From contig OZ244561.1 in the NCBI GenBank assembly GCA_965217585.1, positions 3,104,001 through 3,168,000 of the forward strand: a stretch of DNA of 64,000 nucleotides. The letters run 5' to 3'. The notes beneath the pieces are model-generated. The model saw only the letters and a program-made list of their open reading frames with translations. It made no database searches and was not told the DNA's origin. The translations under genes were made by a program, and so were the position numbers. This DNA is from Candidatus Latescibacterota bacterium (GTDB lineage Bacteria > Latescibacterota > UBA2968 > UBA8231). The first letter of the stretch is position 1. Each line of letters opens with the position of its first letter. Shown here one piece after another: positions 31,942 through 45,446 of the stretch.

Positions 31942-33423
31942 ATGGCCATTAGCATCCACCCCCGCAACCCCAAGCTGTTCCAATTTCGCGGCCAGCCCTT
32001 GGCGTTGGTCTGCGCCACCGAACACTACGGAGCAGTGCTCAACCGCCCCTTCCGCTTCGAGCGCTACTTGGCCGATGCGGCCGGCCGGGGCCAGACCCTG
32101 ACCCGCCTCTTCACCCTCTTCCGCGAGCTCCAGTCCGCAGTCAATCCCTACTCGACCTGCAAGCCCGAATCGACCGACTACATCGCTCCCTTTGCGCGCA
32201 CTGGGCCGGGCAAAGCCCTCGACGGCGAGCCGCGCTACGATCTAGAGATTTGGAACCCCGAGTATTTTCAACGCCTCCACGCCTTCCTATCCAAGGCGTC
32301 CGCTCTAGGCGTCATCGTCGAGGTGGTCCTATTTTCCAACACCTATGCCGACAACGTGTGGGCGCTCAATCCACTCAACCCGGCTAATAATATCTCGATG
32401 GATGCGACCGAGCCGATCCCTTGGCATCACTACCTAACCTGTCGCCGCGCCGCGCTGCTCAAGTGGCAGGAGGCGCACGTCCGCCGCATCGTCGAAGAGA
32501 CCAACTGCTATGACAATATATTTTACGAGATATGCAATGAGCCTGGGGGCTTTCGGTCGGCGGGCGACGAGGACCGGCCCGCTGTCGATGAAGTAAACGC
32601 TTGGCAGAGCCATTTCATTCGGCTGATCCGCAGTCTCGAAGAGGAGTTGCCGCAACGCCACCTCATTGCCGGCCAGGAGGCGTTTACCTACGACCCCTTT
32701 GAGCAGCCCGCCGACGCGACCTTTTCCGGACTCGACTTCGACGTGGTCAATATCCACCCCCTGCCCAACACCTGCTGGGGAGGTCAGCACTACGACATGG
32801 GCACCTTCATGTCCAAAGAGCTGAAGCTGCGGCCGCTGCGCGACTTCGCGCTGGCCACGTACGCCCTGTCCAAGCCCCTCAATTACGACGAAGACAATGT
32901 CGCCACGCGCTACCGCGACTTGGATGGGTGGACGATTCACCGCAAGCGCGCTTGGACGGCGCTGTTTTGCGGCGCTCACTACGACATGATCGATTTCTCG
33001 ATCGCCCCGTACCTAGAGGCGGGCACCTCGGAATCGCGCCGCGGCATCCGCCGCTGGATGGGCCACCTGTCGTCGTTTGTACACGCGCTCGACTTGGCGC
33101 GGGCGCGGCCTTTAACGGATTTTTTGCAGGAGCAACCTCCGCACACCATTGGGTCGGTGCTGGCCGTGGCGGGAGAGGACTACTGCATATACCTCGCCGA
33201 CGAGCGGGAGTTGACCGCGGCTGGCTGCGGCGAAACGATCGTTGGTAGTCTCGCATTCGACCTGCCCGAGGGGCAGTACGAAATCAGTTGTTACTCACCG
33301 GTCGTAGGCGGGTTTTCGCCCGCCCTGACGTGCGCGGGCGGGCCAGCGCAAAAAGTGGCCGTGCCCGCCTTTCACCACGATATTGTCGTTCGCGTCAAGC
33401 GACGCGAACTCTCTAACGACTAA
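31942..33423 (+). CDS. Clan GH-A-like (GH5/cellulase-type) glycoside hydrolase, cytoplasmic
   Basis: YEICNEP acid/base motif, KPLNYDE nucleophile-like motif, WNPEYFQRL; no signal peptide. Confidence 0.7.
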   Translation: MAISIHPRNPKLFQFRGQPLALVCATEHYGAVLNRPFRFERYLADAAGRGQTLTRLFTLFRELQSAVNPYSTCKPESTDYIAPFARTGPGKALDGEPRYDLEIWNPEYFQRLHAFLSKASALGVIVEVVLFSNTYADNVWALNPLNPANNISMDATEPIPWHHYLTCRRAALLKWQEAHVRRIVEETNCYDNIFYEICNEPGGFRSAGDEDRPAVDEVNAWQSHFIRLIRSLEEELPQRHLIAGQEAFTYDPFEQPADATFSGLDFDVVNIHPLPNTCWGGQHYDMGTFMSKELKLRPLRDFALATYALSKPLNYDEDNVATRYRDLDGWTIHRKRAWTALFCGAHYDMIDFSIAPYLEAGTSESRRGIRRWMGHLSSFVHALDLARARPLTDFLQEQPPHTIGSVLAVAGEDYCIYLADERELTAAGCGETIVGSLAFDLPEGQYEISCYSPVVGGFSPALTCAGGPAQKVAVPAFHHDIVVRVKRRELSND

Positions 33424-33433
33424 GGAGACGATT

Positions 33434-33754
33434 ATGTATTCGATTGGCTTGGGCATGCGGCTGCGCCCCAATGCGTACGCCGAGTACAAACAGGCCCACG
33501 ACGACCTGTGGCCCGAAATCGCCGAGAGCATGACCGACAACGAGGTCAGCATGGCCATCTACCGCTTGGGCGAACACCTCGTCATCCACGCGGTGGCCCC
33601 TACCGAGGAAGACTGGCTCAAGAGCCGCCAAGTTCCCATTCTAGAAAAGTGGTACGACTACATGGCGCAGTTGTTGGAGACCGACGACGAGGGGCAGATC
33701 ATCTTCGAGGAGTTACCCGAAGCCTTTGCCTTCGGAATGTTCAAAGAAGCGTGA
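33434..33754 (+). CDS. rhaM: L-rhamnose mutarotase family protein
   Basis: MRLRP...EYKQAHDDLWPE...W..YMA.L; TAAGGAG RBS before ATG 33434. Confidence 0.8.
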   Translation: MYSIGLGMRLRPNAYAEYKQAHDDLWPEIAESMTDNEVSMAIYRLGEHLVIHAVAPTEEDWLKSRQVPILEKWYDYMAQLLETDDEGQIIFEELPEAFAFGMFKEA

Positions 33755-33757
33755 ACC

Positions 33758-34561
33758 CTAGGCCGCGTCCACTGGGTTTTGCAGCCGGCCGATCTGGTCT
33801 ATTTCCACGATTACCTCGTCGCCGGCCGCGAGCCACACGGGCGGTTTGCGCGCAAAACCCACGCCCTGCGGGGTGCCGGTGAGGATGACTGTGCCTGGCA
33901 GCAAGGTCGTATCTTGGCTGAGGAACTCGATCAGTTCGGCGACCGTGAAGATCATGTCGCCGGTGGTGTGGTCCTGCATGATCGCGCCGTTGAGAATCGT
34001 GCGGATGCCGAGGGTTTGTGGGTCGGGAATTTCGTCGGCTGTGACCAGCACCGGCCCCAAAGGGCAGAAGGTGTCAAAGCCCTTGCCGCGAATCCACTGG
34101 CCGCCGCCGCCGTGGAGCTGCCACTTGCGGGCCGAGACGTCGTTGGCGCACGTGTATCCGAGTACGTAGCTGAGGGCGTCGGCCTGCGCCACGTTGCGGG
34201 CGGCCTTGCCGATCACCACTGCGAGCTCGCACTCGTAGTCAACTTCCGGCCCGCGGCGACAGCAGGCCGGCAGCAGGATCGGGTCGCCCGGGCCGCAGAC
34301 CGCGCTCGTGGGCTTGGCAAAGACTACGGGCTGCTCGGGTGGCTCGAGGCCAGATTCGGCTGCGTGTTCTCGGTAGTTTAGCCCGATGCAGAAAATGTTG
34401 GTTGGGGCGAGCGGGGCGAGCCGCCTTTTGACGGCCACTTGTTCGCCCATGGGCACTAGTTCTGCGAAGAGATCGCCGGTGAGGACGGAGGCTTGGCCCT
34501 CCTCGGCTTCGAGGCCCCAACGGACGGTGTCACCAGCGTCGATAAAGCGGATGATGCGCAT
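33758..34561 (-). CDS. Fumarylacetoacetate hydrolase family protein
   Basis: CIGLNY.EH, VDYECELAVVIGK, GYTCANDVSAR, GKGFDTFCPLGP, ILTGTP.GVG; AAGGAG RBS before ATG 34561. Confidence 0.93.
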   Translation of the reverse strand: MRIIRFIDAGDTVRWGLEAEEGQASVLTGDLFAELVPMGEQVAVKRRLAPLAPTNIFCIGLNYREHAAESGLEPPEQPVVFAKPTSAVCGPGDPILLPACCRRGPEVDYECELAVVIGKAARNVAQADALSYVLGYTCANDVSARKWQLHGGGGQWIRGKGFDTFCPLGPVLVTADEIPDPQTLGIRTILNGAIMQDHTTGDMIFTVAELIEFLSQDTTLLPGTVILTGTPQGVGFARKPPVWLAAGDEVIVEIDQIGRLQNPVDAA

Positions 34562-34630
34562 GTCTTTCTCCTTTGTTTTTCCAGCACTTGCACAAACCTT
34601 AAGGCAGGGCTGGCAGCCCGTCAAATAACC

Positions 34631-34698: not shown

Positions 34699-36111
34699 GT
34701 GCCCCAAAACGTCAGCGAAGAACACGTACGCAAAATAGTCGAAGAAGTGGTGCAGCGCGTCGTCAGCGGCGGGGACGGCAGCGAGGGCGGGGACACTGGT
34801 GTCTTCGCGACGGTCGACGCGGCTGTCCAAGGCGCGACCCGCGCCCAGCAGCAGTTGGTGGCCTTGTCGCTAGAGGAGCGCAAAAAGATCGTCGAGGCCC
34901 TCCGGCAGACGGCGCACGTCCACGCCGAGGAGTTTTCGCGGCGGGCCTTGGCCGAGACGGGCATGGGGCGGTTGGAAGACAAGATCATCAAGCACCAAGT
35001 CGCGGCCGACACCACGCCCGGTGTCGAAGACCTAGAGGCCACTTCGTGGACCGGCGACCACGGGCTGACCGTAGTCGAAATGGCTCCCTACGGGGTCATC
35101 GGCGCGGTCACCCCATCTACACATCCCGTGCCGACGATGGTCAACAACGCCATTTGCATTGTCGCCGCGGGCAACTCGGTCGTCTTCAACGTACATCCGG
35201 CGGGCAGAAAGGTCTCCATGTTCGCGGTGGGCTTGATCAATCAAGCCATCGTCGCAGCCGGCGGGCCGGCCAACTTGGTGACCGCGGTTGAGACGCCGAC
35301 GATTGAGACGGCCAACGAATTGTTCAACCACCCGGATGTCCGCCTGCTGCTGGTAACCGGCGGGCCGGGCGTGGCCAAGGCCGCACTGGGTAGCCCCAAG
35401 AAGGCCATTGTCGCTGGTCCGGGCAATCCGCCCGCGGTGGTCGATGAAACCGCCGATTTGGCCAAGGCCGCGCGCGATATAATCGACGGGGGGGGCTTCG
35501 ACAACAACATTCTCTGCATCGGCGAGAAGCAGGTCTTTGCCGTCGCCTCCATTGCCGACGAGCTCAAGCGGCTGATGGTCCAGTACAATGCATATGAGCT
35601 CGATGCGCGGCAGATCGAGGCCCTCGCGCAGGTGGCCTTTGTCGAAGGGCCGGACGGGCATCTCGCAGCCAACCGCGAGCTGGTAGGACGCGACGCTGCC
35701 GTGCTGGGCGAGCGCATCGACCTCCGGCTCGACTCGTCGCTGCGCGTGCTCATTGGCGAAACCGACGCCAACCACGTTTTTGTGCGCGAGGAGCAGATGA
35801 TGCCCTTTCTGCCGATCGTGCGGGTTCCCAACATCGACCAAGCCATCCGCGAGGCCGTCATCTCCGAGCACGGCTACGGGCACACGGCCGTGATCCATTC
35901 GCGCAACATCGAAAACATGCACAACATGGCCCGCGCCGTAGATACCACTATTTTCGTCAAGAACGGCCCTTCCTACGCTGGGGTTGGCTTGGGCGGCGAG
36001 GGCTTTGGGACGTACTCCATCGCCGGGCCTACGGGCGAGGGCCTGACTTCACCGCGGACTTTTACCCGCCAGCGCCGCTGCGCCCTCGTCGACTACTTCC
36101 GCATCACCTGA
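34699..36111 (+). CDS. CoA-acylating aldehyde dehydrogenase (EutE/PduP family) with N-terminal encapsulation peptide
   Basis: AETGMGR.EDK..K, PYGVIGAVTPSTHP, TGGPGV, AGPGNPP, FDNNILCIGEK (catalytic Cys), EQMMP, HTAVIHS; SEEHVRKIVEEVVQRV peptide. Confidence 0.95.
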   Translation: MPQNVSEEHVRKIVEEVVQRVVSGGDGSEGGDTGVFATVDAAVQGATRAQQQLVALSLEERKKIVEALRQTAHVHAEEFSRRALAETGMGRLEDKIIKHQVAADTTPGVEDLEATSWTGDHGLTVVEMAPYGVIGAVTPSTHPVPTMVNNAICIVAAGNSVVFNVHPAGRKVSMFAVGLINQAIVAAGGPANLVTAVETPTIETANELFNHPDVRLLLVTGGPGVAKAALGSPKKAIVAGPGNPPAVVDETADLAKAARDIIDGGGFDNNILCIGEKQVFAVASIADELKRLMVQYNAYELDARQIEALAQVAFVEGPDGHLAANRELVGRDAAVLGERIDLRLDSSLRVLIGETDANHVFVREEQMMPFLPIVRVPNIDQAIREAVISEHGYGHTAVIHSRNIENMHNMARAVDTTIFVKNGPSYAGVGLGGEGFGTYSIAGPTGEGLTSPRTFTRQRRCALVDYFRIT

Positions 36112-36425
36112 TGCTCTTGGGCCAAGTCAAAGGGCATTTGGTTTCCACGGCCAAGGTCCCGAGCCTCAACGGCAAGAAGCTCTTAGTCGTCGAAATCGCG
36201 TCGGTGCGCGAGCATGGTCTGGTGCTGACGGGGCGGGATATGGTCTGCATCGATGCGGTGCAAGCGGGCAAGGGCGAGCTGGTGATTTTGGTGCAGGGCA
36301 GCTCGTCGCGGATCGCCCCGGACTTGGCCGACGTGCCAGCCGACGCGGTAATCGTCGGGATCGTCGATTCGCTACAGGCCATGGGCAAAGACTTCGACTG
36401 TCGGCAACTGAGCCGCGAAGGATAG
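36111..36425 (+). CDS. BMC vertex (pentamer) protein, EutN/CcmL family
   Basis: MLLGQVKG.LVST.K...L.G.KLL, D.VQAG.GE.V, GSSSR, PADAVIVGIVD. Confidence 0.95.
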   Translation: MLLGQVKGHLVSTAKVPSLNGKKLLVVEIASVREHGLVLTGRDMVCIDAVQAGKGELVILVQGSSSRIAPDLADVPADAVIVGIVDSLQAMGKDFDCRQLSREG

Positions 36426-36428
36426 GCG

Positions 36429-37109
36429 ATGGACGTTGCACCAGCGGCTGGATTGGACCGCAAGCAGATTGAGGCGTTGGTGCGCCGGGTGGTGTACGAT
36501 CACCTGCCCGACGCTCAGCTAGAGCAGGCACCCCCAGCCCCGAGGCTGGTAGTCAATATGTCCGCCCGCCACGTCCACCTCAATCAAGAGGCGCTGGACG
36601 CGCTTTTCGGCGCGGGTGCCGAGCTAACCGTGCAGAAGGCCCTGTATCAGGAAGGAGCTTTTGCCGCCGAGCAGACGGTGTCGGTTTTCGGCCCGCGCAA
36701 GCAGGTGATTCCCAATGTCCGCATCCTCGGCCCATTGCGCGAGTACAACCAAGTGGAGCTGGCCTTTACGGACGCCCGCTTTTTGGGCATTAACGCGCCG
36801 GTGCGGCTCAGCGGTAACATAGAGGGGACGCCGGGCTGCTACTTGGTGGGGCCGGCTGGGGGACTAGAGTTGGATCACGGGGTGATTCGGGCCGCCCGCC
36901 ATGTACATCTAAACCCGGCAGAGGCCGCGTACTATGGGGTCGGCCCGGGGGACTTGCTGCGGCTGGTAGTAGAAGGTGACCAGGGCGGGGTGCTGGAAGG
37001 GCTGATCTGTCGAGTCAGCGAGCGCGAGCGCCTAGAAGTTCACATCGACACGGACGAGGGCAATGCGATTGATTTGGTCCATGCCCGCAAGGTATATTTG
37101 GAGCGTTGA
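36429..37109 (+). CDS. pduL: Phosphate propanoyltransferase PduL with N-terminal encapsulation peptide
   Basis: SARHVHL, VRILGPLR..QVEL..TDA, AARHVHL, HIDTDEGNA; DRKQIEALVRRVV peptide. Confidence 0.95.
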   Translation: MDVAPAAGLDRKQIEALVRRVVYDHLPDAQLEQAPPAPRLVVNMSARHVHLNQEALDALFGAGAELTVQKALYQEGAFAAEQTVSVFGPRKQVIPNVRILGPLREYNQVELAFTDARFLGINAPVRLSGNIEGTPGCYLVGPAGGLELDHGVIRAARHVHLNPAEAAYYGVGPGDLLRLVVEGDQGGVLEGLICRVSERERLEVHIDTDEGNAIDLVHARKVYLER

Positions 37110-37146
37110 ACGCAAAAATCCGCACAATTACTTCAGGAGGTAAGGG

Positions 37147-37707
37147 ATGTCGGATGCAATAGGCATGGTAGAAACGGTGGGGCTGGTCGGGGTCGTCGAG
37201 GCCGGCGACGCCATGGCCAAGGCCGCCAGCGTACAGCTTTTGGGCTGGGACAGAGTCGGCTCCGGCTTGGTGACCGTGTTTTGCTCGGGCGATGTGGCGG
37301 CCGTCAAGTCGGCCGTGGATGCCGGCTCGGCCGCTGCGGCCAAGGTTGGGGAGGTGCATTCGGTGCATGTGATTCCCCGCCCGCACAGCGAGTTGACGGC
37401 CGTCGTGCCCGAGCGCGGCGACAGCGACGACAGCGATGGTCGCGTCCGCGCCTTGGGTCTCATTGAGACGAAGGGGGCCATCGGCGTGATCGAAGCAGCC
37501 GACGCCATGAGCAAGGCCGCCGATGTGGAGGTCGTCAAGCTCCAGGACATCGGTGGCGGGTACATTACCGTCATGGTCAGCGGCGACGTAGGCTCGGTGC
37601 AGGCTTCGGTCAGCGCTGGTGCCGAGGCGGCCGAGCGCGTGGGCGAGCTTGTGTCGCAGCACGTGATTCCCCGTCCCCACGACGATCTCGTCGCGTTGTA
37701 CTTGTAG
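37147..37707 (+). CDS. BMC shell protein with two tandem non-permuted domains
   Basis: Two AxGxxET..DAM.KAA..GDV..V..HVIPRPH units; pore loops RVGSG and DIGGG. Confidence 0.95.
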   Translation: MSDAIGMVETVGLVGVVEAGDAMAKAASVQLLGWDRVGSGLVTVFCSGDVAAVKSAVDAGSAAAAKVGEVHSVHVIPRPHSELTAVVPERGDSDDSDGRVRALGLIETKGAIGVIEAADAMSKAADVEVVKLQDIGGGYITVMVSGDVGSVQASVSAGAEAAERVGELVSQHVIPRPHDDLVALYL

Positions 37708-37723
37708 GTAGAGGAGAGAAATA

Positions 37724-37987
37724 ATGAAAGCATTGGGTATGGTCGAGACCCGCGGTTTGGTCTGCGTCGTCGAAGCCCTCGACGCCATGTTGAAAACCGC
37801 CGACGTGAGCTATGCGGGCCAAAAGCGCGTGGGTAGTGGCCTAATTACCGTGCTAGTCGAAGGCGACGTAGCGGCCGTCAAAGCGGCCGTAGATGCGGGA
37901 GCGCAAGCCGCCCAGCGCATCGGCGAGCTGCGCAGCGTCCACGTGATTCCCCGCCCTACTGAGGGGCTGACAGACCACATTGGTTAG
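37724..37987 (+). CDS. BMC-H hexamer shell protein (EutM/PduA-like)
   Basis: [36 protein letters not shown]. Confidence 0.96.
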
Positions 37988-37991
37988 CTAA

Positions 37992-38441
37992 GTGGCCGAG
38001 GCTTTGCACATCGACGCCCCGGTAGTCACCGGCGATTTGCTCGGGCGCGAGCACAAGGGCGAGCGGACGCTCAGCGTGGCTCCCAGCGCCATCTTGACGC
38101 CGACGGCTTGGGATTACATCCGCCAGCACCGGTTGCAGCTAAGTCGCGGCGAGGCCGTTGCGGCAGCCGCCGACGGCGTTGCGGACGCGGGCCGTTGCGA
38201 GCATCCCGACCGCGCCTGCGGCTGCCAGCACGAGGAATTTGGCTCGGGGTACGTCGAGCCGTCGCGCTGCGGCGATTGCGCCGTCCACCAGCGCAAGAAG
38301 GCGGGGGATCCCGAGGCGAGTTGCGAGGGTTGCAACCGCTACAAGACGCTGTTGCAACAAATCGAGCAGGGCCAAGCCACCGATCCAGAAGCCTTAATTG
38401 AGCAGATCACCGAGCTAGTAATTCACCGGCTGGCAGACTAA
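37992..38441 (+). CDS. BMC-associated Cys-rich hypothetical protein with C-terminal encapsulation-peptide-like helix
   Basis: N-terminal ILTPTAWDYIR domain, 7 Cys (CEHPDRACGC, CGDC, CEGC), DPEALIEQITELVIHRL tail. Confidence 0.82.
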   Translation: MAEALHIDAPVVTGDLLGREHKGERTLSVAPSAILTPTAWDYIRQHRLQLSRGEAVAAAADGVADAGRCEHPDRACGCQHEEFGSGYVEPSRCGDCAVHQRKKAGDPEASCEGCNRYKTLLQQIEQGQATDPEALIEQITELVIHRLAD

Positions 38442-38444
38442 GCT

Positions 38445-39029
38445 ATGGCGGGCGACCCAGCAGTTGGCATGATCGAAGTGCAGGGCGTGGCCGCCGCCAT
38501 TGTGGGTGCGGATGCGGCCTGCAAGGCCGCGGATGTGCAGCTCGCGGGTTGGGCGTCAATCGGCGGCTATACCACGGCCTTTTTCACCGGGTCGATCAGC
38601 GATGTGGCCGCCGCGCTGCAAAGCGGCGAAGAAGCGGCCCGCGGCGTGGTAGAACACGTGGTGGCCGTGCCTCTAAACCAACCCGTTCCCGCCTGCTTCC
38701 ATTTCGTCGATTTTCCGGTCCGTGCCCACAGCGACTTTCCCGCCGGTGCCTTGGGGTTGGTCGAGACGCGCGGCTATGGGGCCCATATTCACACGAACGA
38801 TCAGATGGTCAAGACGGCTGCTGTCGAGGTAATCAACGTGCTGACGGTCCACGACCGCGTGGTGTGTTCGCTGGTCTTGGGAGACGTAGGAGCCGTCACC
38901 GAAGCCATCGCCGTCGCGCAAAAGCTGCTCGCGGGGTGCGAGCGCTTGCTAGGCACGGCACTGATTCCGCAGCCGCGACCAGAGGTTTTGGCTGCATACG
39001 CCGTGCCGATGGGAGGTGGCGGTGTCTAG
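38445..39029 (+). CDS. Divergent two-domain BMC shell protein
   Basis: AVGMIEVQG..DAACKAA and ALGLVETRG..DQMVKTA..GDVGAV..IPQPRP. Confidence 0.9.
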   Translation: MAGDPAVGMIEVQGVAAAIVGADAACKAADVQLAGWASIGGYTTAFFTGSISDVAAALQSGEEAARGVVEHVVAVPLNQPVPACFHFVDFPVRAHSDFPAGALGLVETRGYGAHIHTNDQMVKTAAVEVINVLTVHDRVVCSLVLGDVGAVTEAIAVAQKLLAGCERLLGTALIPQPRPEVLAAYAVPMGGGGV

Positions 39030-40170
39030 CGGGGCGATCGGCATGTTGGAGACGCGCGGCATGGCGTCGCTGATGGCTTCCACCGACGCCATGCTCAAGG
39101 CCGCTGAGGTACACCTCTGTGGTCGGCACGGCATTGGCTCGGGTTGGCTCACCGTAGTAATTGCCGGCCAAGTAGCTGACGTGGAGGCGGCCATTCGCGT
39201 CGGCGAGGTCGAGGCGAACCGCACCGGCGAATTGATTGGCGCGCGAGTGGTGCCGAGGCCGGACACGCGCGCCATGGACGCCATGCCCCACGCAACTGGC
39301 CTCGGTGCCGAACAGGTACGGCCGCAGGCGATTGGCCTGTTGGAGACGCAGGGCCTGACGCCGCTAGTGGCTGGCGTCGATGCCATGCTCAAGGCCGCCC
39401 AAGTGGAGCTAGGGGGTTGGGCTTTCATCGGCGGCGCGCTGTGTCACGCGCCGATCTTTGGCGATGTGGCGGCTGTGCAGACGGCGCTAGAAGTCGGCCG
39501 ACAAGCAGCCGAGCGGATTGGCACTGTGTACGCGACCCTCGTTTTGCCCCAGCCCAGCGAGGGGCTAGGCCCTCTGCTGCCGCCCGCGCCACCGGTCACA
39601 CCGCGCTCCACGGGTGCCTTGGGCCTCATAGAGACCATTGGTTACTCCGCGGTCGTGGGCAGCGCCGACGCCATGCTCAAGGCCGCGGATGTCCAAATCG
39701 AGCGCTTGAGCATCGGCAGCGGCGGGCGGATTGCCGCGCTGGCTACCGGCCAGCTCGACGACGTGCAGGCCGCCCTGCGCGCTGGTGCTGAGGCGGCCAC
39801 GGGCTTGGGGCAGCTCGAAGCCTCGGCTGTAGTCTCTCGGCCCGATCCCGCGCTAGTCGCTCGTTTTGCCACTGCGGCCGAGGGCCTTGGGCCGGGTGCG
39901 CGGCAGGCTATGGGGCTGATTGAGACGCGCAGCACCGTGGCCTTGGTGCGGGCCGTCGATCGGATGCTCAAAGCCGCGGCCGTCGAATACGAAGGGGCCT
40001 ATAAGGTGGGGTACTACTTGACGGCCGCCGTCGTCCGCGGCGATGTCGGTGCCGTGCAGGTCGCCATAGAGGCGGGCCGGCAGGAGGCCGTCGCACACGG
40101 AGAACTGGTCTCGGCCTACGCCATTCCGCAGCCCTACAGCGGCCTCGAAGGCCGCCTGCCGCACGTTTAG
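39022..40170 (+). CDS. Four-domain BMC shell protein
   Basis: Four consecutive BMC domains, each with AxGxxET and D(A/R)MLKAA; GGAGG at 39012-39016 supports GTG 39022 (the ORF track starts at 39016). Confidence 0.92.
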   Translation: MSSGAIGMLETRGMASLMASTDAMLKAAEVHLCGRHGIGSGWLTVVIAGQVADVEAAIRVGEVEANRTGELIGARVVPRPDTRAMDAMPHATGLGAEQVRPQAIGLLETQGLTPLVAGVDAMLKAAQVELGGWAFIGGALCHAPIFGDVAAVQTALEVGRQAAERIGTVYATLVLPQPSEGLGPLLPPAPPVTPRSTGALGLIETIGYSAVVGSADAMLKAADVQIERLSIGSGGRIAALATGQLDDVQAALRAGAEAATGLGQLEASAVVSRPDPALVARFATAAEGLGPGARQAMGLIETRSTVALVRAVDRMLKAAAVEYEGAYKVGYYLTAAVVRGDVGAVQVAIEAGRQEAVAHGELVSAYAIPQPYSGLEGRLPHV

Positions 40171-40184
40171 CGAGGACGCGAAAA

Positions 40185-41357
40185 ATGATTCGGATTGACG
40201 ATGCAGTAATTACCGCTCAGACCTTGGAGGGCCGCCTGTCTGGCGAACGGCAGGTCGAGCTCGGCCCGGGGGCCAAGCTGACGCCCTCGGCGCAGGACTT
40301 TTTGCGCGCTCAAGGCGTTGAGGTTGTGCGTCGATCGGACGGGGAGCCAGCACCTGCCGCGCCCGCCGCGCCCCGGGTCCCGGCCGCTAACGTGGGGGGC
40401 CGCAAGGCATTTGCTGGCATCTTCTGCCCCAACGTCGTCCTTTTCGACCGCGAGAACGAGATCAACCACGCCGAGATGGAGCGCTACATCAACTGGCTGG
40501 TCGAGGTTGGGATCCACGGGCTGTATCCCAATGGCAGCACTGGCGAGTTCGCGCGCTTGTCGCGGGAGGAGCGCCAAGACGTGGTGCGGCTGGTCTGCGA
40601 GGTCAACGCGGGGCGCGTACCTGTACTGGCCGGAGCCAGCGAGGCCAACTTGCGCGACGTGCTCAAGATGGCTGAATACTACGCCTCGCTCGGCGTGGAT
40701 GCCATTGCGCTGATGCCCCCCTATTACTATGAGATTTCCACTGAAAGCCTCTTCGAGTACTTCGCTGAAATCGCCGAAGAATCGCCGCTGGACATCTTGC
40801 TATACAATATCCCGCGATTTACCCAAGAGCTGTCGATAGATCTGATGGAGCGACTCTTGCCCTACGAGCGGATCTTCGGCACCAAGGACTCCAGCCGCGA
40901 CCTGCCGCGGCTGCTCAACACCATGAATCGCTTGCGCCAACAGCGCCCCGAATACGTGGTAATGACCGGTTGCGAGGAGATCGTGTTCCCCTCGGTGCTC
41001 ATGGGCGCCAGTGGGGGCACCATCGCCACCTCGGGCATCGTCCCAGAGGTGATTGTCGAGCTTTATGAAAAGGCCAAAAGCGGCGACATTGAGCGGGCCC
41101 GCGAACTGCAATACCGCATCCTCGATCTCATCAACCTCATGCTCTTAGGCGTCAACTTCCCAGAGGGCTTCAAGACCGGCGTGGCGGCTCGTGGCTTTGA
41201 CGTAGGCCCAGCGCGGGCATCTACTACTGCCGCCGAGCAGGAGTACCTGCTCAAGCTAGAGGCCCAAATCAACTGCGTCCTCGCGGATATGGGCTATCCG
41301 GTGAGCGGCCCCCGCGCCTGCCCGACGACCAACCTGCCGCCGATCGTCGGCCGTTAG
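40185..41357 (+). CDS. DHDPS/NAL-family class I aldolase with an N-terminal BMC-associated extension
   Basis: NGSTGEF, GRVPVLAG, PPYY, LYNIP, GTKDSS (Schiff-base Lys); about 70-aa extension with LTPSAQDFLR and a Pro/Ala linker. Confidence 0.92.
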   Translation: MIRIDDAVITAQTLEGRLSGERQVELGPGAKLTPSAQDFLRAQGVEVVRRSDGEPAPAAPAAPRVPAANVGGRKAFAGIFCPNVVLFDRENEINHAEMERYINWLVEVGIHGLYPNGSTGEFARLSREERQDVVRLVCEVNAGRVPVLAGASEANLRDVLKMAEYYASLGVDAIALMPPYYYEISTESLFEYFAEIAEESPLDILLYNIPRFTQELSIDLMERLLPYERIFGTKDSSRDLPRLLNTMNRLRQQRPEYVVMTGCEEIVFPSVLMGASGGTIATSGIVPEVIVELYEKAKSGDIERARELQYRILDLINLMLLGVNFPEGFKTGVAARGFDVGPARASTTAAEQEYLLKLEAQINCVLADMGYPVSGPRACPTTNLPPIVGR

Positions 41358-42434
41358 ATGGCCCTTGCGGGCGCGCGTGTGTTGGTGGTCGGGGCCGGTA
41401 TCATTGGCCGCTCGACGGCCTACTTCCTCGCGCGGCAAGGCGCGAAGATCGTCCTGCTCGACGAGGGAATCCCCGCTGGCTCGCCCACGAGCCGGGCCTC
41501 TTTGGGCGTCCTCACCCACTGCAACGGCGGCGACAATCCCTACGCCCAGCTTTTCCGCGACGGTCACGCTCTGCACGCTCGGCTGGCCCGCGACTTAGAA
41601 GAAGATATAGACGCAGATGTGGGCTGGCGTCCCCTCGGCGGCATCGAGCTTTTTGCCGACGCATCCCAGATAGAGGAGGTCTGGCGCTTCAACCGCGCGC
41701 GCGGCTGTCGGGTCGAACGGCTCGACGAGCGGGCCTTGCGCGGTGCGGAGCCGGCGTTGGACGGCGGTTGCGAGGGTCTGTATTTTGCCGACGATCACCG
41801 GGTGGATCCCCTCAAGTTGGGCGCGGCGCTTTGGGCGGCGGCCGTACAGCGTGGCGCGTCCGCCGCTTGGGGTGAGCGCGTCTGGCGCATTGCCCAAGAG
41901 GGCGAGGCCGTCGAGGTCGCCACCAGTCGCGGAACCCACCGCGCTGACTTTGCGGTCTTGGCGGCTGGAGCGTGGACCGGCGGCTTGGCTGCGCAACTCG
42001 GTGCCCGCGTCGCGTTGCGCCCGGTGCGGGGCCAACAAGCGCGATTTGCCGGTGCCCCGCTGCGCCACCTAGTGAAGGTAAACGGACGCCACCTAATTCC
42101 AGACGGCGGCGAAACGGTCGTGGGATCGACGATGGAAGAGGTCGGCTTTCGGTTGGAAACGACCCGCGCGGCCGCGGCGGAGTTTGCCTCGGAGGTACGC
42201 TCCGCGCTGGGGAGGTGCTTGCCGCTGTCGCGCCAGCAGGCTGGTCTGCGGCCCAAGCCCCGAGGCGGGCGTCCGCTCATCGGCCCGCTGACGGATGCGC
42301 CGAGGGTTTTCGTGGCCTCTGGGCACTACAAAAACGGCGTCTTATTAGGCCCGATTACCGGCCAGATCGTCGCTCACTGGATCGCCGAGGGAACCCCAGG
42401 GCGCGACATGCGCCGCTTCGCACCCGAGCGTTGA
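41358..42434 (+). CDS. FAD-dependent oxidoreductase, DAO/glycine oxidase (ThiO-like) family
   Basis: VVGAGIIG, LAAGAW, PVRGQ, VGST.E, AGLRP, GHYKNGVLLGP; starts at the base after the aldolase stop. Confidence 0.9.
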   Translation: MALAGARVLVVGAGIIGRSTAYFLARQGAKIVLLDEGIPAGSPTSRASLGVLTHCNGGDNPYAQLFRDGHALHARLARDLEEDIDADVGWRPLGGIELFADASQIEEVWRFNRARGCRVERLDERALRGAEPALDGGCEGLYFADDHRVDPLKLGAALWAAAVQRGASAAWGERVWRIAQEGEAVEVATSRGTHRADFAVLAAGAWTGGLAAQLGARVALRPVRGQQARFAGAPLRHLVKVNGRHLIPDGGETVVGSTMEEVGFRLETTRAAAAEFASEVRSALGRCLPLSRQQAGLRPKPRGGRPLIGPLTDAPRVFVASGHYKNGVLLGPITGQIVAHWIAEGTPGRDMRRFAPER

Positions 42435-42467
42435 ATTCATTGCCACCTAACACAGTTGAGGTTAAAC

Positions 42468-43409
42468 ATGCCATTGCAAAAAGAAGACCTACTCGCCGCG
42501 CTAAACTCGGTTACCTCCATCCCGGTGGTCCCTTTTCGCGGCGGGCAAATCGACTACGAGGCCCACGCCAAGAACATCAACTACTTAATGGAGAACAATC
42601 ACTTAGACGGTGATCGGCCCCGGGTGATTGGTATCGCTGGCACTAGCTTGATCCACCACATTAGCGCGGACGAGCGAGTGCGGCTGTTGGGCTTTACCGG
42701 CGAGCAGATGGGGGGGCGCGGGGTGCTGATGTCCGGGATTGCTCCCAATCCAGTTGGGGATGCCGAGCGGTTGATCGAGCGGGAGGCCGCGCTGGAATAT
42801 CCCCCGGATGTCTATCTCGTCATGCCGCTTACTGGCGTGGCCAATCCAGAGGGCATTTTCGCGTACTACGTGGATTTTGCCGAGCGGTTGGGGCGTTCGT
42901 GCGGGGCCAAGTTGCTCTACTACCTGCGCAACCAAGCCGAGCGCGAGATAGCCGTGCGACTGATGAACGAATCCGAGCACTTCGTGGGGCTGAAGATCGG
43001 CACTACGGTCGAGGACGTTGAGCCGATTGTCGCCGACGTACAGGAGGGAGCTGCGCTGGTGATATGGGGTGTGGGGGACCGTTCGACTGGGCCGGCCGAG
43101 CGCGGCACCAAAGGGCATACGTCGGGGATCAACGTGGCCTTCGCCCGCGCTTCAGACGAGATCAACAACGCCCAGCGCCGAGGCGATTTTGCGACCTCGC
43201 AGCAGATCGAAAACCAGCTCGCGGCCCTAGAGGAAATTCGCTTCCGCAACGGCCGCATGTACAACTACTCGGCTGTGGTCGAGGCCATGCACTTGGGGGG
43301 ATTCAGCGATGTGGATGGCGGCGAGGGCGGTCCGTTCAATCCGCGGGTGTCGGCGGAAGTGGCCGAGGAAGTAGCCGCGGCCATAGCCGACATTGTGGAC
43401 TATCACTAG
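42468..43409 (+). CDS. Divergent DHDPS/NAL-family protein (KdgD-like dehydratase or aldolase)
   Basis: IPVVPF..G.ID, LLYY, FVGLKIG (Schiff-base Lys), GHTSGI; GxxGE loop altered to GIAGTS. Confidence 0.75.
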   Translation: MPLQKEDLLAALNSVTSIPVVPFRGGQIDYEAHAKNINYLMENNHLDGDRPRVIGIAGTSLIHHISADERVRLLGFTGEQMGGRGVLMSGIAPNPVGDAERLIEREAALEYPPDVYLVMPLTGVANPEGIFAYYVDFAERLGRSCGAKLLYYLRNQAEREIAVRLMNESEHFVGLKIGTTVEDVEPIVADVQEGAALVIWGVGDRSTGPAERGTKGHTSGINVAFARASDEINNAQRRGDFATSQQIENQLAALEEIRFRNGRMYNYSAVVEAMHLGGFSDVDGGEGGPFNPRVSAEVAEEVAAAIADIVDYH

Positions 43410-43708
43410 CCTTCGTCGCGCAGCCGCTCTAGATAGGCCGTCCATTCGACGGGGAGCAGGTGCTGCTTTTGGCTGTTGCAGTGCTTGCAGCAAGGCACCA
43501 CGTTGGACTTGGTGGTGCGGCCGCCGCGGATGAGCGGCACGACGTGGTCCATGGTTAGCTCATCGGGCGCAAACGACTGCTGGCAGTAGTGGCATTGGCC
43601 GGCGGCCCGTTTGCGCTTCCACCACTGGGAGCGGCGCAGCATCTTGGCCTTGTTCTTTTCTCGGGCAACGTGTTCGGTGTCGGCTGGGACGAAGTATGTG
43701 TTTTCCAT
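43406..43708 (-). CDS. HNH endonuclease family protein
   Basis: CHYC...LTMDHVVPLIRGG....NVVPCCKHCN..K. Confidence 0.9.
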   Translation of the reverse strand: MENTYFVPADTEHVAREKNKAKMLRRSQWWKRKRAAGQCHYCQQSFAPDELTMDHVVPLIRGGRTTKSNVVPCCKHCNSQKQHLLPVEWTAYLERLRDEG

Positions 43709-43878
43709 GCGAAAGCAAGATAGCGCAGAATGGGCGCAGGACAAATGAACCTTAGCGAAGCCGATACCGGGGCTAAGCTCATAGAAGGATATTCGCCGCA
43801 TGACGAAATACCAGCTTTATATTGCCGAAGTGGGAGAACCTGACCAGAAAGGTGAGGATACCTGAGAGAAGTTGATAT

Positions 43879-44850: not shown

Positions 44851-45156
44851 TCAGACGGGTTCATAACGCTGGACGCTGATCTCATTTGCGCGGGCGCGCA
44901 TCTGCGAGGCGTCATACCAAGCCTGCATCCTCAACAGCATGTCCATGCCTACGCCAAATGCCTTCTCTATACGTAGTGCCATCTCCGGTGATAGCGCGGC
45001 GTTGCCATTCAGCAAGTCCGAAAGCGTTGCCCGCCGAACTCCCAGAATCTCGGCTGCTCTCGTCACGTTCAGGCCCAACTCCTCGATGACTTCCGTGCGA
45101 ATAAAGTCGCCTGGATGCGAAGGGGTCATGTTCACTTTGATGCCGTCGGTAGCCAT
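44851..45156 (-). CDS. higA: HigA family antitoxin
   Basis: HPGDFIR, AAEILGVRRATLSDLLNG, SPEMALRIEKAFG, MQAWYD; coupled to higB by TAATG. Confidence 0.93.
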   Translation of the reverse strand: MATDGIKVNMTPSHPGDFIRTEVIEELGLNVTRAAEILGVRRATLSDLLNGNAALSPEMALRIEKAFGVGMDMLLRMQAWYDASQMRARANEISVQRYEPV

Positions 45157-45446
45157 TAGTGGTAGTCCTCCAAGTTCAAGCGGTCTATGTAGCCGTCCTC
45201 TTCTGCAAAGGTGATCCGCCAATTGCCGGATACCGAAATGCTCCATTCGTCCTGCCGGTCACCTGAGAGTCTATGGACGCGCCAGCCACGAGGCGCATCG
45301 GCGATGAATCTGTCCAACTCCTCTGCCAAGATCAGGGCTGTCAAGATCTTGCGCACTCGGTCAACCAAATTGTGTTGCAGGAACCGGGGGTTGTCGTCTT
45401 CGATCAACCGGCGCAATCCTCGGTGGTGGACAGAGCGAATAATCAT
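45156..45446 (-). CDS. higB: HigB (RelE/ParE-fold) toxin
   Basis: MIIRSVHHRGL, PRGWRVHRLSGDR, WSISVSGNWRITF, LNLEDYH. Confidence 0.93.
   Translation of the reverse strand: MIIRSVHHRGLRRLIEDDNPRFLQHNLVDRVRKILTALILAEELDRFIADAPRGWRVHRLSGDRQDEWSISVSGNWRITFAEEDGYIDRLNLEDYH

Follow-up and report, generated by a model that had tools for sequence, protein, structure and literature searches.

In the window (the whole stretch of DNA analysed here, 64,000 nucleotides from a genome of Candidatus Latescibacterota), two proteins of a microcompartment (BMC) operon, a small Cys-rich protein and an aldolase of the DHDPS/NAL family, begin with copies of the same domain of about 50 residues. Tentatively, we read the shared stretch as a small alpha/beta domain specific to microcompartment-linked proteins, which would serve protein association and would not be a handshake private to this pair; each client would join the organelle alone, by docking to a tile of BMC-T and four-domain BMC (4xBMC) shell proteins. 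The domain is already in print, in supplementary file 4 of Sutter et al. (2021, Nat Commun; PMC8217296), for loci of the MUF2 type, which makes the value of the present finding more modest. New relative to the MUF2 description are the wider domain family, the separability of its carriers and the strict linkage to the BMC-T/4xBMC shell genes. The features of the operon are listed in Table 1.

Table 1. Features of the operon and of its two domain-bearing proteins (positions in the window).
Feature	Position	Strand	Basis
L-rhamnose mutarotase and FAH-family hydrolase, flanking the operon	33383..34624	+ (mutarotase), - (hydrolase)	PF05336, PF01557
Upstream part of the operon: AldDH (N-terminal EP), BMC-P, PduL (N-terminal EP), BMC-T, BMC-H	34699..37987	+	Pfam
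Cys-rich protein, 149 aa: N-terminal shared domain, variable linker, six-Cys module, C-terminal EP-like helix	37992..38441	+	ORF
Shared domain copy 1, residues 1-55 of the Cys-rich protein	37992..38156	+	BLASTP, profile alignment, pLDDT 83-95
Six-cysteine module, residues 69-115	38196..38336	+	invariant Cys columns
C-terminal EP-like amphipathic helix, residues 132-148	38385..38435	+	predicted helix
Two-domain BMC shell protein (BMC-T2), 14-nt overlap with the next gene	38445..39029	+	Pfam BMC x2
Four-domain BMC shell protein (4xBMC), 384 aa	39016..40170	+	PF00936 x4, 255.5 bits
DHDPS/NAL-family class I aldolase, 390 aa: shared domain, disordered linker, conserved C-terminal tail	40185..41357	+	
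Shared domain copy 2, residues 1-52 of the aldolase	40185..40340	+	BLASTP, genome search, alignment, pLDDT 84-87
Pro/Ala-rich disordered linker, ~22 residues (53-75)	40341..40409	+	pLDDT <50, residues 53-74
DAO-family FAD oxidoreductase	41358..42434	+	PF01266, 193.7 bits; ThiO-like, below cut-off
Second, divergent DHDPS-family protein	42456..43409	+	PF00701, 39.7 bits

The MUF2 description covers a protein encoded between BMC-H and BMC-T, with a C-terminal encapsulation peptide (EP), six conserved Cys and an N-terminal domain in common with a pfam00701 aldolase (PMC8217296). The traits listed there further include N-terminal EPs on AldDH and PTAC, a C-terminal EP on the pfam00596 aldolase of a satellite locus that also has a BMC-H gene next to it, quadruple BMC fusions and a BMC-P triplet, and the AldDH is placed closest to the PVM clade. 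The catalogue holds 13 such loci, 5 of them with the uncharacterized protein, mainly from Gemmatimonadetes, whereas the present genome belongs to Latescibacterota; in its MUF2 entry, no role is proposed for the shared domain and no link is drawn to PVM or Eut proteins. The present operon resembles these loci in the AldDH and PduL-type PTAC with N-terminal EPs, the Cys-rich protein and the quadruple BMC fusion. The N-termini of AldDH and PduL (PF00171 and PF06130 matches) contain amphipathic stretches, as read from the sequence, and the gene order from AldDH to BMC-H is kept across the compared related loci. A satellite locus (L070), 3.3 Mb away, holds the sole PF00596 gene of the genome (158.7 bits), a 240-aa ORF for a class II aldolase with an amphipathic helix-like C-terminus, 0.8 kb from a 97-aa BMC-H ORF. 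The BMC-P triplet is represented by three adjacent PF03319 genes at 5.126 Mb, and one more PF03319 gene is found in the operon.

BLASTP comparison of the Cys-rich protein with the aldolase yielded one gapless segment, residues 5-52 against 2-49, with 17 of the 48 positions identical and 27 positive (E 2e-7, single comparison). When the own 7.3-Mb genome was searched in six frames with residues 1-55 of the Cys-rich protein, the only matches were the protein itself and the aldolase N-terminus (E 2.1e-4). Each copy is kept in its own orthologue series (132 homologues of the Cys-rich protein and 52 of the aldolase), and 34 copies were aligned without internal gaps, with T12, T35, P36 and D40 invariant. 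The AlphaFold2 models place the same strand-helix-strand-strand-helix-strand order in both copies, each followed by a linker with pLDDT below 50. In Pfam, the domain matched nothing at E<=10, and the best 150 carriers have no recurrent family for it; Co_AT_N, a short Pfam family with an 'ARD' motif, was not reported in any scan of the domain. A Foldseek search of PDB with the model of the Cys-rich protein returned nothing at E<=0.001, and comparison of this model with 48,161 chains by VIA-align reached a best Z of 6.1 (Cas1 N-terminal domain, 55 residues, rmsd 2.2), which is within the background of the tool and gives no evidence of a new fold. The domain profile matched PDB sequences at chance level only, the best row (E 0.011) being a designed repeat.

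In a 16-sequence alignment of the Cys-rich protein, C69, C78, C93, C96, C111 and C114 are invariant, and an EEFGSG motif is present. No family scored above the cut-off in the Pfam scan of this protein; the six-Cys module gave a weak Zn-ribbon match below it (E 0.015) and no usable match in an ESM Atlas search. This module, which probably binds metal, has low pLDDT in the model, which was built without metal. An EP is defined as a terminal amphipathic helix of ~15-20 residues that a linker of low conservation separates from the folded part (Aussignargues 2015), and the Cys-rich protein is predicted to end in such a helix beyond a variable linker. Among the 16 homologues, the segment preceding the helix varies in length, the alternating hydrophobic pairs of the helix are kept in all 16, and L135 is nearly invariant; the hydrophobic pattern resembles those of the AldDH and PduL N-termini and of the C-terminus of the satellite class II aldolase.

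By its sequence, the aldolase is a member of the DHDPS/NAL class I aldolase family (PF00701, 199.5 bits against a gathering cut-off of 22.1; residues 76-362 on profile positions 2-286 of 289), and it falls below every equivalog cut-off of NCBIfam. Across 21 aldolase sequences, the linker varies in length and sequence, whereas conservation reaches 90% or more at K234, the putative Schiff-base lysine, and in N116-F122, the putative GSTGE-type motif of DHDPS/NAL enzymes. No terminal amphipathic helix was found outside the fold in the aldolase model, in which the tail (residues 381-390) is non-helical with pLDDT below 50. The flanking rhaM and FAH genes suggest cleavage of 2-keto-3-deoxy-L-rhamnonate/fuconate to lactaldehyde as a candidate reaction; the best NCBIfam match of the FAH-family hydrolase is 2,4-didehydro-3-deoxy-L-rhamnonate hydrolase, at 223.8 bits against a cut-off of 500. 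The alternative candidate is a hydroxyproline-type DAO/DHDPS pair; for both candidates, all NCBIfam matches are below cut-off. In all 56 aldolase-bearing loci with enough flank, the aldolase gene lies directly 3' of 4xBMC, and because it adjoins the shell genes in this manner, we assign the aldolase to the microcompartment. A preliminary description of this stretch had already reported the gapless common domain, the membership of the aldolase in the microcompartment, an EP-like helix in the small protein resembling those of AldDH and PduL, and an aldolase with no obvious one; the first two claims are borne out by the comparisons above, and the models agree with the other two.

The domain is far from restricted to these two proteins. 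A profile of the 34 copies matched 1153 cluster representatives at E<=1e-3 and 180 at E<=1e-10. Among the best 150 representatives, Cys-rich proteins and aldolases are joined by many chains of ~215-285 aa that start with an EP-like helix, continue with the domain and end in an RpiB-like part; PF02502 is matched in 34 and PF00701 in 7 of the 150. PVM-type loci supply the main carriers, EP-domain-RpiB(-like) proteins. A classical PVM gene set surrounds the carrier in four Planctomycete loci, and the PVM loci contain one domain carrier only. Overall, the domain is fused to three enzyme folds (DHDPS, RpiB and an EutT/PduO-like segment), and two copies per chain occur in 2 of the best 150 representatives, one of which is TIGR02536-like, with the copies flanking the EutT-like segment.

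TIGR02536 is a family of the B12-dependent Eut system, and its C-terminal ~40 positions were matched by 27 of the 34 domain copies (best E 2.9e-6), the copy of the Cys-rich protein matching weakly at positions 169-204 of 207. The scores of 13-25 bits, with the small protein at 19.1-22 and the aldolase N-terminus at 13.1, lie far below the cut-off of 152.6 that marks full-length members, and therefore only the domain is in common. The likeness to PduM and EutQ suggested in the preliminary description shrinks to a marginal one for PduM (TIGR04493 in 1 of 34 copies, E 0.014; PF15953 in 1 of 150, E 0.0051) and, for EutQ, to 1 of 34 copies at E 0.23. PduM is described as a structural protein of low abundance that begins with a signal sequence and whose body is required for the core-shell connection (PMC12108088), the same linking role that we propose for proteins combining an EP with the domain. 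As for the RpiB-like carriers, the EP-bearing RPI of SPU6 co-purifies with the DERA aldolase of the compartment, and a packaging role is proposed to have been retained (PMC11585597). With the N-terminal EP, the same domain and an RpiB(-like) body, the RPI of SPU/PVM type correspond to the main carriers, to which the SPU6 protein itself may belong; they differ from the Cys-rich protein in the body, and the account of the RPI in that paper speaks of a typical EP and makes no mention of this domain.

The preliminary description had cast the small protein as the adaptor of the aldolase: the two N-terminal domains would heterodimerize, and the EP of the small protein would carry the untagged aldolase into the microcompartment. 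This layout recalls the beta-carboxysome, where the small protein CcmN binds its partner CcmM by an N-terminal domain and, beyond a variable linker, recruits the shell through a C-terminal EP, linking an EP-less core component to it (PMC4594438). Several observations fit such a role. In both present proteins, the homologous domain sits on a flexible linker, and the EP-like helix is found in the small protein only; in 50 of the 60 loci with enough flank, one operon contains both genes at a distance of four genes; each copy has conserved residues of its own, as expected of a specialized hetero-pair (the Cys-rich copy has an invariant H21 and mostly W39, where the aldolase copy has L and a variable residue); and the EP-plus-domain layout recurs in the unrelated RpiB-like family of PVM type, CcmN/CcmM and the EP-bearing RPI with DERA providing precedents. 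However, the folds of CcmN and the small protein are unrelated, and CcmN is essential and co-occurs with CcmM (PMC4594438), whereas here the carriers are found separately. Our survey covered 168 genomes of the phylum, 85 of them with the MUF2-type domain; both carriers are present in 59 of the 85, the aldolase alone in 20 and the Cys-rich protein alone in 6 (by locus, 50, 6 and 4 of the 60), counts that lack independence, the genomes being related (17 genera with 4xBMC). The 20 aldolase-only genomes (16 from family f3, 2 from f4 and 2 incomplete assemblies from f1) have no other detectable copy of the domain and include five single-contig genomes that are 97-100% complete; closed assemblies are present in both single-carrier groups, and the domain stays conserved where either carrier stands alone. 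In the f3 genomes, the aldolase lies in a satellite module, BMC-T2 - 4xBMC - aldolase, and the main locus (PduL, BMC-H, BMC-P, AldDH, class II aldolase, acetate kinase) encodes no domain protein at E<=10 with filters off. In favour of the adaptor, two aldolase copies from the one lineage without the small protein have lost the otherwise nearly invariant R43. Against it, the presence of the Cys-rich protein follows the DAO-family oxidoreductase (present in 54 of 54 loci with the Cys-rich protein and in none of the 6 without it, a pattern from few lineages), not the aldolase, and the PVM loci have a single carrier. Since the carriers occur separately, a dedicated, obligate adaptor pair is unlikely, and the adaptor role as originally stated is not supported; we consider the adaptor model improbable. 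Complex prediction for residues 1-56 of the Cys-rich protein (16-row alignment) with residues 1-53 of the aldolase (20 rows) scored 0.00 twice, which counts neither way on binding.

A constant companion of the domain in this phylum is the shell pair. Full-length relatives of 4xBMC were identified in 83 of the 168 genomes, and all 83 also carry a MUF2-type domain protein, always adjoining 4xBMC; conversely, of the 85 genomes that encode a domain protein of this type, 83 have 4xBMC, the two exceptions being 58% and 85% complete. The BMC-T2 gene adjoins the 4xBMC gene in 69 of 69 loci with a 4xBMC match, and the Cys-rich gene lies directly 5' of BMC-T2 in all Cys-rich loci except two, where ~4 kb intervenes. 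This strict linkage may reflect joint inheritance of one mobile block. Under docking, the reading that we prefer, each of the two clients would join the organelle by its own domain, with the tile built from the overlapping BMC-T and 4xBMC genes as the best candidate site, and the aldolase would be loaded with no need of the small protein. Having both the domain and an EP, the Cys-rich protein could bridge the tile site to the EP-organized enzyme core, and it is probably a metal or redox partner of the FAD oxidoreductase encoded next to it. For this reading we count the width of the family, the separable carriers, the shell-pair linkage, the tracking of DAO by the Cys-rich protein, and a large-scale structure prediction in which a Listeria TIGR02536 trimer is stacked on the BMC-T protein EutL (PMC13181095). 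The latter complex is itself a prediction, and its interface may lie elsewhere than in the domain; moreover, proteins with an EP and the domain would be targeted in two ways, a combination that suits an adaptor of the binder-plus-anchor kind no less well. PVM-type carriers are also encoded in loci that have neither BMC-T nor 4xBMC within 10 kb, and one carrier with a full-length RpiB domain is encoded far from any shell gene, so the tile is not the universal partner of the family.

In another reading, the domain would associate with itself or bind the amphipathic EP helices of other cargo, such that multivalent carriers (the tetrameric aldolase and the EP-plus-domain proteins) would knit the enzyme core together and hetero-pairs would form only where carriers coexist. 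Every observed configuration (either carrier alone, both, or a PVM-type carrier alone) is compatible with such cross-linking; chains with two domain copies would be expected of a self-pairing domain, T12, T35, P36 and D40 are retained across the MUF2 and PVM contexts, which have AldDH, PduL and EP-bearing cargo in common and differ in shell types, and aggregation of cargo through EPs is an accepted model (PMC4594438). Cross-linking by itself leaves the strict linkage to BMC-T2/4xBMC unexplained, however, and we rate it slightly below even the adaptor. A small-molecule ligand (substrate, cofactor or effector), by which the domain would regulate or feed its hosts with no part in assembly, appears very improbable: the invariant residues are polar (Thr, Thr-Pro, Asp and mostly Arg) and not hydrophobic, and the domain is fused to enzymes of three folds, but no known ligand-binding fold or family was matched in the Pfam, PDB and fold searches, the domain of the Cys-rich protein is joined to no recognizable enzyme, and long disordered tethers suit docking better than allostery.

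Our understanding of how EP-less cargo enters microcompartments is incomplete, and engineering at present depends on EPs, which often render proteins insoluble. A broader and more doubtful extension of the docking reading is that the domain represents a second, EP-independent class of assembly handle across MUF2, PVM/SPU-like and Eut organelles, which docks to BMC-T-type tiles or receives EPs; in that case, the EP-plus-domain proteins would supply the missing links between core and shell or within the core, and the MUF2 aldolase would be the first case of an enzyme whose loading depends on the domain alone, within a portable three-gene module of tile plus cargo. A small, well-folded, portable association domain that sits on an EP-less enzyme would be useful as a second loading tag, and it would open an approach to the little-understood "structural" proteins of PVM, SPU and Eut compartments.

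The microcompartment (BMC) genes of the window, delineated from open reading frames and Pfam matches, form one operon between 33.3 and 43.4 kb (see the table), and near-identical loci are present in MAGs labelled Latescibacterota and Gemmatimonadota. Just downstream, in a stretch of lower GC content (0.537), lie two small overlapping ORFs which we take to resemble a HigB/HigA-type toxin-antitoxin pair.

Genes of the operon and other features discussed (window coordinates unless a locus or contig is named)
Feature	Position	Remarks
L-rhamnose mutarotase		start of the operon gene list
FAH-family hydrolase		follows the mutarotase, opposite strand
AldDH, BMC-P, PduL, two-domain BMC protein, BMC-H		in this order, 5' of the Cys-rich gene
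Cys-rich protein	37992-38441	149 aa; after BMC-H
Second two-domain BMC protein (BMC-T2)	38445-39029	
Four-domain BMC protein (4xBMC)	39016-40170	14-nt overlap with the BMC-T2 gene
DHDPS-family aldolase	40185-41357	390 aa; PF00701 over residues 76-362
Proline-rich tail of the aldolase	41271-41357	residues 363-390
DAO-family FAD oxidoreductase (DAO)	41358-42434	after the aldolase gene
Second, divergent DHDPS-family protein		last gene of the operon, after DAO
ORF with HNH-like Cys/His pattern (by eye)	43406-43801 (-)	131 aa; directly 3' of the last operon gene
Two overlapping ORFs	44851-45446 (-)	96 and 131 aa
Satellite BMC-P triplet, same genome	C1:5126021-5126816	L071, L073, L074
RpiB-type carrier, another genus of the phylum	L082 9325-10053 (-)	
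Cys-rich gene about 4 kb from BMC-T2	L005 10451-14452	
Cys-rich gene about 4 kb from BMC-T2	L028 10451-14788	
Aldolase with R43 lost, family f3	L079 12163-13332	
Aldolase with R43 lost, family f3	L084 9906-11069	

The Cys-rich protein and the aldolase share an N-terminal domain, as proposed in the preliminary description: residues 5-52 of the former align without gaps to residues 2-49 of the latter in BLASTP (17/48 identical, E = 2e-7), and AlphaFold2 predicts a common strand-helix-strand-strand-helix-strand fold (pLDDT 83-95 and 84-87 for the two copies), followed in each case by a linker with pLDDT below 50. A six-frame search of the 7.3-Mb genome with residues 1-55 of the Cys-rich protein matched these two proteins only, and each copy is retained in its orthologue series (132 Cys-rich proteins and 52 aldolases). 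In a clean alignment of 34 copies from three protein contexts, T12, T35, P36 and D40 do not vary, and L16 and R43 are almost invariant.

Outside the domain, the alignment of its homologues shows an EEFGSG motif and six cysteines without variation in the Cys-rich protein, which also has a predicted C-terminal helix (residues 132-148), the hydrophobic spacing of which resembles that of the AldDH and PduL N-termini. This helix also resembles the C-terminus of the only class II aldolase of the genome, which is encoded beside a BMC-H gene at a distance of 3.3 Mb. In the predicted model of the DHDPS-family aldolase, there is no terminal amphipathic helix outside the fold; the models and the hydrophobic pattern agree with the earlier observation that the small protein ends in a helix like an encapsulation peptide (EP) and the aldolase lacks an obvious one. 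Beyond its DHDPS domain, the aldolase carries a conserved, non-helical, proline-rich tail in which Cys379 is invariant and Cys364 nearly so. All NCBIfam matches of this enzyme fell below their cut-offs; from the rhamnose mutarotase and the rhamnonate-pathway-like hydrolase encoded nearby, it may be a deoxy-sugar-acid aldolase that yields lactaldehyde. That the N-terminal extension is good evidence for assigning the aldolase to the compartment holds: the great majority of proteins with the domain are linked to microcompartments, and in each of the loci examined the aldolase gene lies beside shell genes.

The sharing of this domain is already described for the MUF2 locus type, in the relevant passage of the supplement (file 4) of Sutter et al. 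2021 (PMC8217296), where this type is defined. The features listed there include quadruple BMC fusions, a triplet of BMC-P genes and, in a satellite locus, a pfam00596 aldolase that ends in an EP, and all are found in the present genome: the satellite class II aldolase with its EP-like C-terminus, a quadruple fusion, and a satellite triplet, beside an unrelated 356-aa ORF, that together with the operon copy accounts for the four BMC-P genes. This makes the locus another example of the catalogued kind, from a phylum that is absent from those named for MUF2 in that passage (PMC8217296), and the same passage proposes no role for the domain. In open-access full text, “MUF2” was found only in Sutter et al. 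2021 and its preprint, and we found no statement there that ties the domain of MUF2 loci to TIGR02536 or to RpiB-like proteins of the PVM type.

A profile built from the 34 copies was searched against 1.84 billion cluster representatives and recovered a large family, with 1153 proteins at E<=1e-3, of which 180 reach E<=1e-10. By a rough motif sort, the best 150 of the 1153 comprise 52 proteins with an RpiB-like C-terminal motif, 23 Cys-rich proteins, 10 aldolases, 2 two-copy proteins, 14 short fragments and 49 others, most of the latter 210-265 aa long and carrying the domain between about residues 35 and 130; in one relative, two domain copies flank a EutT-like segment. A Pfam scan of these 150 carriers matched PF02502 (RpiB/LacAB) in 34 and PF00701 in 7, and no Pfam family covered the domain itself. 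An EP-like amphipathic helix stands at the start of 22 of the 25 RpiB-like carriers with listed N-termini, and the remaining three have the domain at or close to their start. Four Planctomycete loci have a classical PVM gene set (DeoR, PduL, BMC-H, acetate kinase, BMC-P, AldDH, lactate/malate dehydrogenase) in which the carrier gene is flanked by BMC-P and the class II aldolase. Another genus of the phylum combines an EP, the domain and a full-length RpiB (PF02502, E = 8.7e-45) in a single protein, encoded among unrelated genes far from the three BMC-H genes of that genome; its RpiB domain contains a GGGTG sequence, presumably at the position of the RpiB catalytic Cys. Of the 34 domain copies, 27 match the Eut family TIGR02536 over its final ~40 positions (best E = 2.9e-6), and the comparison with PduM raised in the preliminary description came down to a single copy of the 34, at E = 0.014.

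Across 168 genomes of the phylum searched with the domain profile, 59 contain two copies (a small frame and an aldolase-size frame), 20 only the aldolase copy (16 in f3, 2 in f4 and 2 in f1, all families of this phylum) and 6 only the Cys-rich copy, counts that are not independent because the genomes are relatives, the single-carrier states representing roughly three to five lineages. The aldolase-only f3 genomes include five single-contig ones, 97-100% complete; of the f1 pair, one has a contig that begins within the locus, and the other is 58% complete. The genomes with the Cys-rich copy only include two assembled as single contigs and one as two contigs, as well as two with a completeness of 81% and 85%. 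In f3, the aldolase belongs to a satellite module, BMC-T2 - 4xBMC - aldolase (6/6 loci retrieved), separate from a main locus (PduL, BMC-H, BMC-P, AldDH, class II aldolase, acetate kinase) in which no domain protein was detected even with filters off at E<=10. The invariant residues are kept in both single-carrier situations, except that R43 is replaced by Ala or Gln in two f3 aldolases, from a lineage without the Cys-rich protein.

At the level of loci, 60 of 69 had sufficient flanking DNA (the other 9 were left out for short flanks): 50 encode the Cys-rich protein, the aldolase and DAO, 6 the aldolase only, and 4 the Cys-rich protein and DAO without the aldolase. The Cys-rich protein is thus present in 54/54 loci with DAO and 0/6 without it and, therefore, follows DAO rather than the aldolase. 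This perfect co-occurrence suggests, from gene content, a flavoenzyme with a small metal-protein partner.

Both carriers track the BMC-T2/4xBMC pair. Full-length 4xBMC is found in 83/168 genomes, all 83 of which encode a MUF2-type domain protein; such proteins occur in 85 genomes, two of which, 58% and 85% complete, gave no match to 4xBMC. BMC-T2 adjoins 4xBMC in 69/69 loci with a 4xBMC match, the aldolase gene, where present, is the next after 4xBMC, and the Cys-rich gene, where present, is the one before BMC-T2; in two related loci (table), an insertion of about 4 kb separates these two genes. A published proteome-scale prediction has the Listeria TIGR02536 protein forming a trimer that stacks onto EutL, a BMC-T protein (PMC13181095).

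The preliminary description had the Cys-rich protein tether the aldolase to the shell through paired N-domains. There are precedents: CcmN, in which a variable linker separates an N-terminal domain from a C-terminal EP, joins CcmM to the shell (PMC4594438), and the EP-bearing RPI, an RpiB-like protein of SPU compartments, co-purifies with DERA aldolase (PMC11585597). A binder-plus-anchor design would also fit the fact that two unrelated proteins combine an EP with this domain. However, each carrier occurs without the other, which contradicts the obligate form of such tethering, and we consider the adaptor role as a whole doubtful. That the domain is a general cross-linker, binding itself or EPs, appears unlikely, and a ligand-binding role quite improbable.

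Given that the carriers are separable, we prefer, tentatively, an autonomous association domain; in MUF2, the leading candidate for its partner is the tile, a putative shell unit of BMC-T2 and 4xBMC. The main weakness of this reading is that there are PVM-type carriers with no BMC-T or 4xBMC genes nearby, and the domain family as a whole therefore cannot share a single partner. If the domain associates autonomously, each client would join the organelle on its own, in MUF2 by docking to the tile, with the Cys-rich protein as another such client, linked to the FAD oxidoreductase and possibly bridging the tile and the EP-organized core.
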